A stretch of DNA of 64,000 nucleotides from Octopus vulgaris (Eukaryota). The stretch's first letter is position 1. Each line of letters begins with the position of its first letter. A program made the position numbers and the translations under genes. Location: the NCBI GenBank assembly GCA_951406725.2, contig OX597836.1, positions 8,742,001-8,806,000 on the forward strand, given 5' to 3'. The notes beneath the pieces were generated by a model, which did not search any database, was not told where the DNA came from, and saw only the letters and a list, made by a program, of their open reading frames with translations. This document shows, piece after piece, positions 51,640 to 52,969 of this stretch.

Positions 51640-51992
51640 AATTATATGAGAATCAAGAATTAATCGTATACCGGTTTCGTCTATCACCGATAAATTACTT
51701 CCGTAATTTTTCGTCCGCAGACTCGTTTAGTGTTTAGTTTTTCAAATTATATTGAATTGGAACGATCGTACTGACGAGGTCTGCGAACGAAAAATTACGT
51801 AAGTAATTTATCGGGAATAGACGAAATCGGTCTACGATTAATTCTTGATTTTTATATAATTTTCATCTACCTTACCCGCTTATGTTCTGGTGTTTGCTGA
51901 ATTTCTCTGGAGAACATTCTTTTCTTTGTAGTTAGATCGTATGTGATCTTCTTCTCGCATATTGGTTATCCACCTAGTGGTTTATCCCTAAA
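51640..51992 (+). mobile_element. TA-flanked element with ~90-bp inverted arms and a hammerhead motif
   Basis: 51640-51731 is the reverse complement of ~51770-51861. Confidence 0.8.
51765..51838 (+). ncRNA. Type I hammerhead ribozyme with extended stem II
   Basis: atcgta-CTGACGA-g-gtct-[...aaattac-gtaa-gtaattt...]-agac-GAAA-tcgg-TC-tacgat; perfect 6-bp stem I; the inverted arm retains GAAA-ccgg-TA. Confidence 0.82.
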
Positions 51993-52008
51993 TATACACA
52001 TGTATATA

Positions 52009-52081
<73 letters not shown>

Positions 52082-52089
52082 ATAATAAA

Positions 52090-52453
52090 TATTAGGGAAT
52101 AAATCCAAATTTACAGGGAAAAATCAGATTTAGGATTGAATCCAATTTTATAGTAAAATATTATATAATATTAATTAGAGACAAAACCACTATTATGCAA
52201 ATCAAACAAAGAAAGACTTAATCCAATACATAAAAAATTTTATATAAATTAAATAAAATTAATTTTATATAAATTAAATAAAATTAATTTAAAATTGAAT
52301 AGAAGGTCTGAAAACCACCTGATGAATGTCCTTAGAAGTGACAAGAAACAATTGTAGTGGATAACTTAATTTTATTTAATTTATATAAAATTTTTTATGT
52401 ATTGGATTAAGTCTTTCTTTGTTTGATTTGCATAATAGTGGTTTTGTCTCTAA

Positions 52454-52465
<12 letters not shown>
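52090..52465 (+). mobile_element. TA-flanked element with ~100-bp inverted repeats enclosing a hammerhead
   Basis: ~52163-52262 is inverted at ~52367-52465. Confidence 0.8.
52315..52360 (+). ncRNA. Type I hammerhead ribozyme
   Basis: ccac-CTGATGA-a-tgtc-cttagaagt-gaca-a-GAAA-caattg-TA-gtgg; palindromic stem III acaattgt. Confidence 0.88.
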
Positions 52466-52512
<47 letters not shown>

Positions 52513-52695
52513 GAGAGAGAGAGAGAGAGAGCAATTGTATACTGTCAACTTAATGTGACAGTCCCATGAAGGGAACCACACCACTGCTATTTAGCCCTAG
52601 GAAGCAGCAACGCTTCCTGTCGGCCTTGACACATTTCCTGTGTCCTTATGTTTACAAGGGGGAGATAAGCACTTCCACCCAGCTAAGCCTGCATC

Positions 52696-52733
52696 CAGAG
52701 ACTAGTTTCAGAGTCTTGCTCGTCATCAGTCTG
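52696..52733 (-). ncRNA. Type I hammerhead ribozyme (minimal, 38 nt)
   Basis: Minus strand reads caga-CTGATGA-c-gag-caaga-ctc-t-GAAA-ctag-TC-tctg; palindromic stem III actagt. Confidence 0.85.
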
Positions 52734-52969
52734 AAGTAGCATGACCTGCAAGTTGGAGATGCCTATCTAGCTCTTGTAAACATATAAGAATTCTAGTGAA
52801 ATAAATTCACTGATTACAAAAATAGAAATATTACATTTCTAAATATTTTTGAGATATTTAGAAATGTTTAATATATATATATATATATATATCTATATCT
52901 ATATATATATATACTAAGCAATAAAGGGTTTGGCAACGAATTGCCTTACCACATACCATATATATATAT

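Follow-up and report, generated by a model that had tools for sequence, protein, structure and literature searches.

How three different hammerhead motifs came to lie within 960 bp of one another, and whether they would cut the RNA that carries them, are the questions raised by this locus in a 64-kb window of the Octopus vulgaris genome (the window being the whole stretch of 64,000 nucleotides analysed here). The reading that we favor, at a probability of roughly 0.8, is that the motifs sit in three unrelated, mostly dead and independent insertions, made by the reverse transcriptase (RT) and endonuclease (EN) of Penelope-like elements (PLEs) into one (TA)n-rich patch, with elements 1 and 2 as stumps of two PLE families and element 3 as a worn unit of the retrozyme type. 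The surroundings are microsatellite-laden, with 69 (TA)n runs of at least 16 nt in the window, and a check of the window's open reading frames found no long, non-repetitive frame near the cluster. PLEs account for 6.83% of the Octopus vulgaris genome, in 190 families (supplement of PMC13282606).

The first motif (HHR1, 51764-51839, + strand) is a type I hammerhead of the PLE type with a predicted cut after C51832, and is composed of a 7-bp stem I (51764-51770 with 51833-51839), the core CUGACGA at 51771-51777, one bulged G, a long stem II, GAAA at 51823 and a near-palindromic loop-3 strand, AUCGGU. HHR2 (52315-52360, + strand; predicted cut after A52356) has a 4-bp stem I (52315-52318 with 52357-52360), a core that starts at 52319, a 4-bp stem II with an A.A mismatch at its foot and the palindrome ACAAUUGU as stem III. 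HHR3, on the - strand (52694-52735; predicted cut after C52700), combines a 6-bp stem I that includes one G.U pair, a core at 52729-52723, a 3-bp stem II with a C.U mismatch at its foot and the palindrome ACUAGU. HHR1 has one extra base before stem II; in HHR2 and HHR3 the usual place of the G10.1-C11.1 pair is taken by a mismatch. The original prediction had placed three hammerheads here with these cores and cut triplets, and in this respect it is borne out. In a scan of the window with a type I descriptor, four matches were obtained (HHR1-3 and a further motif at 35847) against a mean of 0.04 and a maximum of 1 in 100 Markov shuffles, and a relaxed descriptor, in which C is allowed at core position 4, gave six against 0.12, a contrast that is flattered because the descriptor was written after the motifs had been seen. 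No Rfam hammerhead match reached the gathering score in the window, and none appeared at E values up to 10 in 51500-53000; matches to Rfam miRNA families, which fall below the gathering score, are hairpin or (TA)n artefacts. Two CUGANGA matches, at 22420 and 62719, are without stems and were rejected as hammerheads.

The elements that carry the motifs were originally described as three unrelated units separated by (TA)n, and both parts of that description hold. The best local scores between the elements are 16-25, in AT-rich sequence, and the insertions are seen to lie beside (TA)n: elements 1 and 2 meet, 3' end to 3' end, across a (TA)n tract at 51996-52084, and a (TA)n followed by a (GA)n tract at 52461-52532 separates elements 2 and 3 (both tracts unstranded). 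Element 1 comprises an inverted, 5'-truncated copy on the - strand (51632-51735), whose TA-like end is joined to (TA)n, a direct copy on the + strand (51745-51862), of which the arm is 88% alike with the inverted copy, and a one-sided tail of about 130 nt that runs up to the (TA)n (51863-51992, + strand). The inverted repeat spans 91 nt at 88% identity (51632-51722/51779-51869), and because the homology begins inside the hammerhead core, the inverted copy of element 1 has no hammerhead on the - strand. Element 2 comprises a one-sided tail of about 72 nt (52090-52161, - strand), a direct copy that lacks the hammerhead because its truncation falls a little downstream of it (52162-52265, - strand; homology from ~9 nt after the cut site), a hinge marked by a 25-nt tandem duplication at 52231-52300, and an inverted copy (52296-52466, + strand) that holds HHR2 and a 104-nt arm at 52363-52466, 99% identical to its partner at 52162-52265. 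The carrier of the hammerhead is the direct copy in element 1 and the inverted copy in element 2; the two elements point their tails toward each other across the (TA)n of 52000-52080, and both hammerheads read +. Two of the motifs had been placed inside long inverted repeats; HHR1 is largely contained within an arm, and HHR2 lies in the loop between the arms.

The distance from the cut site to the 3' end of the element is 160, 177 and 167 nt in elements 1, 2 and 3, respectively. The inverted copies of all three terminate at a TA-like sequence that is present in the direct copy too, although the elements are AT-rich and these ends may have arisen by chance. Target duplications are unreadable inside the (TA)n flanks of the three elements. 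In elements 1 and 2, both copies are truncated on the 5' side within ~25 nt of the hammerhead edges (51745-51778, 52265 and 52296). No second copy of element 1 or 2 was found within the window. Part of 51632-52865 is present in 22 of the 24 listed sequencing runs, none of them recorded as RNA, and the word shares for this interval in runs X1-X4 are 0.50-0.63, above the share of the query that belongs to element 3, a measure by which family copies and the orthologous locus are not separable.

The anatomy of elements 1 and 2 appears to be that published for 5'-truncated PLE insertions, with a hammerhead, an inverted 5' copy, a one-sided tail and a (TA)n target. PLE insertions with 5' truncation, an adjacent inverted and likewise 5'-truncated copy, a tail at one end and hammerheads in the pLTR have been described (Craig et al., 2021, PMC8557442), as has the same structure for EN+ PLEs, of which the inversion is typical (Arkhipova et al., 2013, PMC3846280), and a preference for (TA)n is reported for the Hydra and Naiad clades, octopus families included (PMC8557442). 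With the stumps of EN+, (TA)n-targeting Hydra/Neptune PLEs, elements 1 and 2 share the near-3' hammerhead, the inverted 5'-truncated copy, the one-sided tail and the (TA)n. Their tails, of ~130 and 72 nt, are longer than the published 30-40 bp (PMC8557442), and the 12% divergence between the arms of element 1 counts against the explanation by PLE insertion. The motifs themselves resemble the minimal PLE hammerheads in their type I fold, short palindromic helix III, and occurrence as single dispersed motifs and as opposite-strand pairs, the latter known from PLEs at distances of 100-700 bp (Cervera and de la Pena, 2014, PMC4209133). HHR1 agrees with the PLE consensus of the same authors in the base bulged out at 9/10.1, closure by a G-C pair, a large helix II and a palindromic loop 3. 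The G10.1-C11.1 pair, there termed highly conserved, is absent from HHR2 and HHR3; a mismatch at the foot of stem II, such as both display, is common among Hydra-clade hammerheads (File S2 of PMC8557442).

We infer a PLE parentage for elements 1 and 2; EN+ PLE families encode RT together with a GIY-YIG endonuclease. Members of the Hydra clade are defined by RWK and DKT motifs in RT and by an EN that lacks CCHH; the stumps contain no coding sequence, and their resemblance to File S2 of PMC8557442 lies in the hammerhead pattern alone. No RT or GIY-YIG sequence is found within any of the three elements, whose longest stop-free frames are 42, 41 and 61 aa; no PLE RT/EN remnant was detected by Pfam in 7 of the window's 120 long frames (two gave zf-RVT), nor by eye in the frames at 35900-37450. 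The hammerhead of Hydra-1_Obim (PMC8557442) is a sequence different from the window motifs, and six short motifs from the elements matched nine places in the portion of the PMC8557442 supplement that was searched, all in unrelated contexts and none in a matching family. The elements are new representatives of types already known, PLE stumps with hammerheads and inverted arms having been published.

Other repeats of the window lie at some distance from the cluster or beside it. At 35651-35979 there is a textbook insertion of the PLE type, with inverted arms at 35666-35817 and 35790-35941 (86%), a short tail, the hammerhead at 35847 (+), a decayed partner at 35760 (-), a 13-bp target duplication at 35651 and 35967, and a third fragment at 36153-36200. 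Another (TA)n-flanked family, 92-94% alike, is represented at 57112-57288, 37556-37716 and 4893-4992, with a common 3' end in all three and a hammerhead-like motif that has C for U at core position 4 (57169 +, 37662 -). A SINE-like repeat at 51405-51610, to the left of element 1, recurs roughly a dozen times in the window (in tandem at 8148-8666, and at 14455-14769, 24465, 32383, 49476-49770, 58319 and 61925), and LINE remnants at 45868-46266 and 47008-47484 (-) match zf-RVT in Pfam (E 2.5e-6 and 4.3e-4).

Element 3 is of another kind. The copy in the window (52533-52846, - strand) represents 314 nt of a head-to-tail repeat unit of ~350 nt; it is non-coding, has a GC content of 41% and is strongly self-paired (fold z-score -5.0, matched by 0 of 200 shuffles), with a long imperfect hairpin at 52647-52784 (- strand) that prolongs stem I of HHR3. 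At its 5' end lies a short inverted copy (52850-52877, + strand), overlooked in the original prediction, the TA-like end of which is joined to (TA)n; this piece contains four family-type bases that are missing from the direct copy, and was therefore likely copied from a family template. Contigs of 4 of the 24 listed runs (X1, X2, X7 and X10, the first three of genomic type) were mapped to 52533-52868, and the family is represented by 3299, 3508, 1824 and 410 contigs, respectively. That X10 is an RNA run is a guess, and the contigs from it are no evidence of transcription. The expectation, implicit in the original prediction, that such units belong to multi-copy families is thus supported for element 3, for which it was checked, by 1,824-3,508 contigs in each of three genomic-type runs. 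Summed depth over the element ranges by part from about 700 to 15,000x the depth of a single contig, an order of magnitude rather than a copy number.

Head-to-tail joints from 52843-52860 to 52533-52538 were observed in at least 7 rows in X1, at least 3 in X2 and at least 1 in X7, each at single-locus depth; no joint is listed for X10. When the joint starts at 52846, a linker of ~38 letters separates the units, and this linker is attached at 52535 in 69, 65, 43 and 14 contigs of X1, X2, X7 and X10. Joints and linker together indicate that the unit is closed head to tail at about 350 nt; the window copy is a solo copy, about 38 nt short of it. Among the contigs listed, none spans one whole unit and none carries two complete hammerheads in tandem. 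Depth peaks at 52593-52650, where it is about 20 times that at 52785-52844, and this unevenness implies that the majority of family members are partial copies or come from diverged subfamilies; the ~20-fold peak is not explained by a simple tandem unit. Diverged loose ends occur at 52649 and 52672, and the 52593-52650 segment is possibly a separate, very abundant derivative. A metagenome scan with a 22-nt pattern from element 3 gave 0 matches.

The differences between the family and the window copy are informative about the fold. At least 46 exist, and 38 of the 40 listed were mapped on it, two without X1 depth having been dropped. At nine of the places listed, an alternative base makes up 60% or more of the depth in X1 and in X2 alike, and at six of these nine the family base turns a mismatch or wobble into a Watson-Crick pair, including 52734 in stem I of HHR3; of the other three, one weakens a pair (52807), one is unpaired and one (52710) corresponds to position 11.1, with A in most of the family and loose ends that point to U or A opposite. 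The changes at 52703 and 52704 have matching depth in all four runs and together would preserve the palindrome of loop 3; two further couples, 52666/52765 and 52654/52777, are apparently compensatory. Pair-breaking minor variants are found at 52579, 52654, 52690 and 52771. A G.A mismatch in the long hairpin (52678, 52753) seems to be swapped to A.G at a matching 10-14%, which hints at a conserved non-canonical pair, and loose ends at 52711 contain a stem II variant with G-C in place of A-U. Since the family differences restore pairing, the window copy is taken to be a decayed, incomplete monomer.

On these features the element 3 family likely fits a non-LTR retrozyme, with a unit of ~350 nt and a family hairpin better paired than that of the window copy. 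It combines a type I hammerhead, head-to-tail repeats within 150-450 bp, non-coding sequence, a GC content under 50% and self-paired RNA, and is like metazoan retrozymes in its ~350-nt head-to-tail unit, 6-bp helix I, short helix II and solo monomers (Cervera and de la Pena, 2020, PMC7229834; Li et al., 2026, bioRxiv 10.64898/2026.07.22.740005). The units of mussel non-LTR retrozymes measure 350-390 bp, and an active axolotl motif, which cleaves best as a dimer, has a U.U mismatch at the foot of stem II (PMC7229834). Unlike published retrozymes, most copies of the family look partial and the window copy has a PLE-like inverted end; also, retrozymes are known by their self-cleavage and their monomeric linear and circular RNA, and what is described here of the element 3 family comes from contigs. 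No retrozyme family of a cephalopod type is named in the text of PMC7229834 or of bioRxiv 10.64898/2026.07.22.740005, the terms hammerhead, ribozyme and retrozyme have 0 matches in the available text of the 2026 Octopus vulgaris repeat paper and its supplement (PMC13282606), and no published report of the family was seen among the papers listed on cephalopod and octopus hammerheads and retrozymes, although repeat libraries or supplements may hold it under another name.

A single mechanism could account for all three insertions. A PLE endonuclease would nick the (TA)n target, and reverse transcription would proceed from the 3' end of the element (the tail) and halt close to the hammerhead, 200-330 nt further on. 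The remaining end of the target would then prime at a TA-like stretch of the template and yield an inverted second copy, hence the fold-back. Element 3 would likely be mobilised in trans by the same PLE machinery. The inverted copies of elements 1-3 differ in their TA ends from the insertion at 35651-35979, which has none, and the published inversion models differ from the one proposed here in invoking self-priming on an antisense template (PMC3846280). Cutting by the hammerhead in the parent families would act on multi-unit transcripts, two copies of the motif joining through their palindromic loop 3 to form a homodimer.

Each motif at the locus is single and unable to pair with the other two, and little or no cutting is therefore to be expected from them. 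By computation, the loop-3 strands of HHR1-3 self-pair at -3.1, -6.4 and -4.8 kcal/mol, and cross-pairing is at 0.0 or above. Folding of HHR1 inside element 1 is predicted to cost 64 kcal/mol because the upstream arm captures the motif; HHR2 and HHR3 are predicted not to be buried (about 4.5 kcal/mol), and slow cleavage of these two as monomers may occur. The isolated hammerhead folds of all three lie 4-5.5 kcal/mol above the ensemble in nearest-neighbour energies, a figure that we use neither for nor against activity since such energy models ignore tertiary contacts. Minimal PLE hammerheads were found not to cleave as monomers and to show low cleavage as dimers (PMC4209133). The cores had been called intact, and as far as the core letters go, all three are; stem III, however, is very short and palindromic or near-palindromic in each motif, the loop-3 strands are without cross-pairing and HHR1 is predicted to be buried, on which grounds efficient cleavage of read-through RNA at the locus appears unlikely. 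The proposal that such RNA could be cut on either strand is thus not supported.

This bears directly on whether the cluster might be an RNA-cutting cassette maintained by selection, with a function in the termination or processing of read-through transcripts of either strand. The catalytic core letters in all three motifs and their orientation, two facing + and one facing -, are what such a cassette would have, and under uniform placement the clustering itself (3 of 6 motifs within 960 bp) has P = 0.013. When placement is weighted by (TA)n, in a crude simulation on the window's (TA)n runs with 6-10 motifs, P rises to 0.09-0.37; the ordinary target preference for (TA)n suffices for the cluster, and the insertion hotspot that had been suggested is not supported. 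PLEs are prone to insert into or next to earlier copies (review PMC6765202). Comparable motifs elsewhere in the window, the drift of the element 3 copy from its family at stem I and stem II, and the folding results for HHR1 and loop 3 all weigh against selection, and we consider a cassette of this kind extremely improbable. A DNA-based origin fares little better. Elements 1 and 2 could be DNA elements of a MITE-like or fold-back kind, or could have arisen by local inverted duplication, and contain hammerhead sequence by chance, given that their long inverted repeats are flanked by TA. TA is the target of Tc1/mariner-type elements, and the window contains transposase-like frames at 21967-22450 (-) and 62364-62800 (+) that, to judge by their motif, are presumably mariner-like remnants, although they have no Pfam match. 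The arms, however, do not form the ends of the elements, both of which have a tail on one side; truncation has struck the two copies at different points, and a hammerhead of the PLE type stands at the expected place in both elements, which makes this origin very unlikely.

A real 3' recognition signal shared by elements 1 and 2 is slightly less probable still. Both tails end with CCCTAA, a few bases from the element end, and CCCTAA is the reverse complement of the common telomeric repeat TTAGGG, which keeps it as a small lead; it could be a relic of endonuclease-less PLEs that prime at telomeres. The likeness of the last 25 nt of the tails is reached by 28 of 2000 shuffles, a comparison chosen post hoc, and that of the whole tails by 199 of 1000. 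The end motifs of the originally proposed shared 3'-end signal do exist, but their likeness is weak and the signal is not supported. There is a single hexamer and no run, CCCTAA ranks 10th of 60 hexamers of the same composition in TA flanks, where 3 of its 15 sites lie, and neither element 3 nor the window's other hammerhead families have such an end. Athena and Coprina PLEs do use reverse-complement telomeric repeats beside hammerheads (PMC8557442), but an inversion such as elements 1 and 2 display is characteristic of EN+ PLEs (PMC3846280). The alternative with the greatest weight concerns element 3, which could be the pLTR region of an autonomous or non-autonomous PLE, its partial tandems mimicking a closed unit and a SINE-like derivative giving the deep 3' part. 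The very uneven depth, with its maximum removed from the cut site in the direction of the 3' end, and the short inverted 5' copy, as in PLE stumps, are consistent with this, and the border is itself blurred, retrozymes having been proposed to derive from PLE pLTRs (bioRxiv 10.64898/2026.07.22.740005). The 3' end, however, leads back to the 5' end within ~38 nt, which leaves no room for an open reading frame, and among the loose ends listed at 52843-52860 none enters other sequence; we therefore hold a pLTR origin to be doubtful, albeit one to be taken seriously.

Under the favored reading, of independent PLE-made insertions into a (TA)n-rich patch, the three-motif cluster is nothing unusual in a genome where Penelope-like elements abound. 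What may reach further is the element 3 family, which offers natural variants of the stem II foot for cleavage assays. It is a tentative possibility, with the odds against it, that this is the first retrozyme family of a cephalopod type, one that numbers thousands of copies, gives rise to an abundant circular RNA of 350 nt and leaves insertions with Penelope-type inverted ends. If true, it would provide direct structural evidence for the mobilisation of animal retrozymes by PLE machinery and for priming of the inverted arm at the (TA)n target. Arguments over which enzyme mobilises animal retrozymes still draw on co-occurrence and on likeness to pLTRs, and a high-copy, retrozyme-like family with PLE-type inverted ends on its solo copies would, through a count of insertion structures, make the question of the mover testable within one genome.
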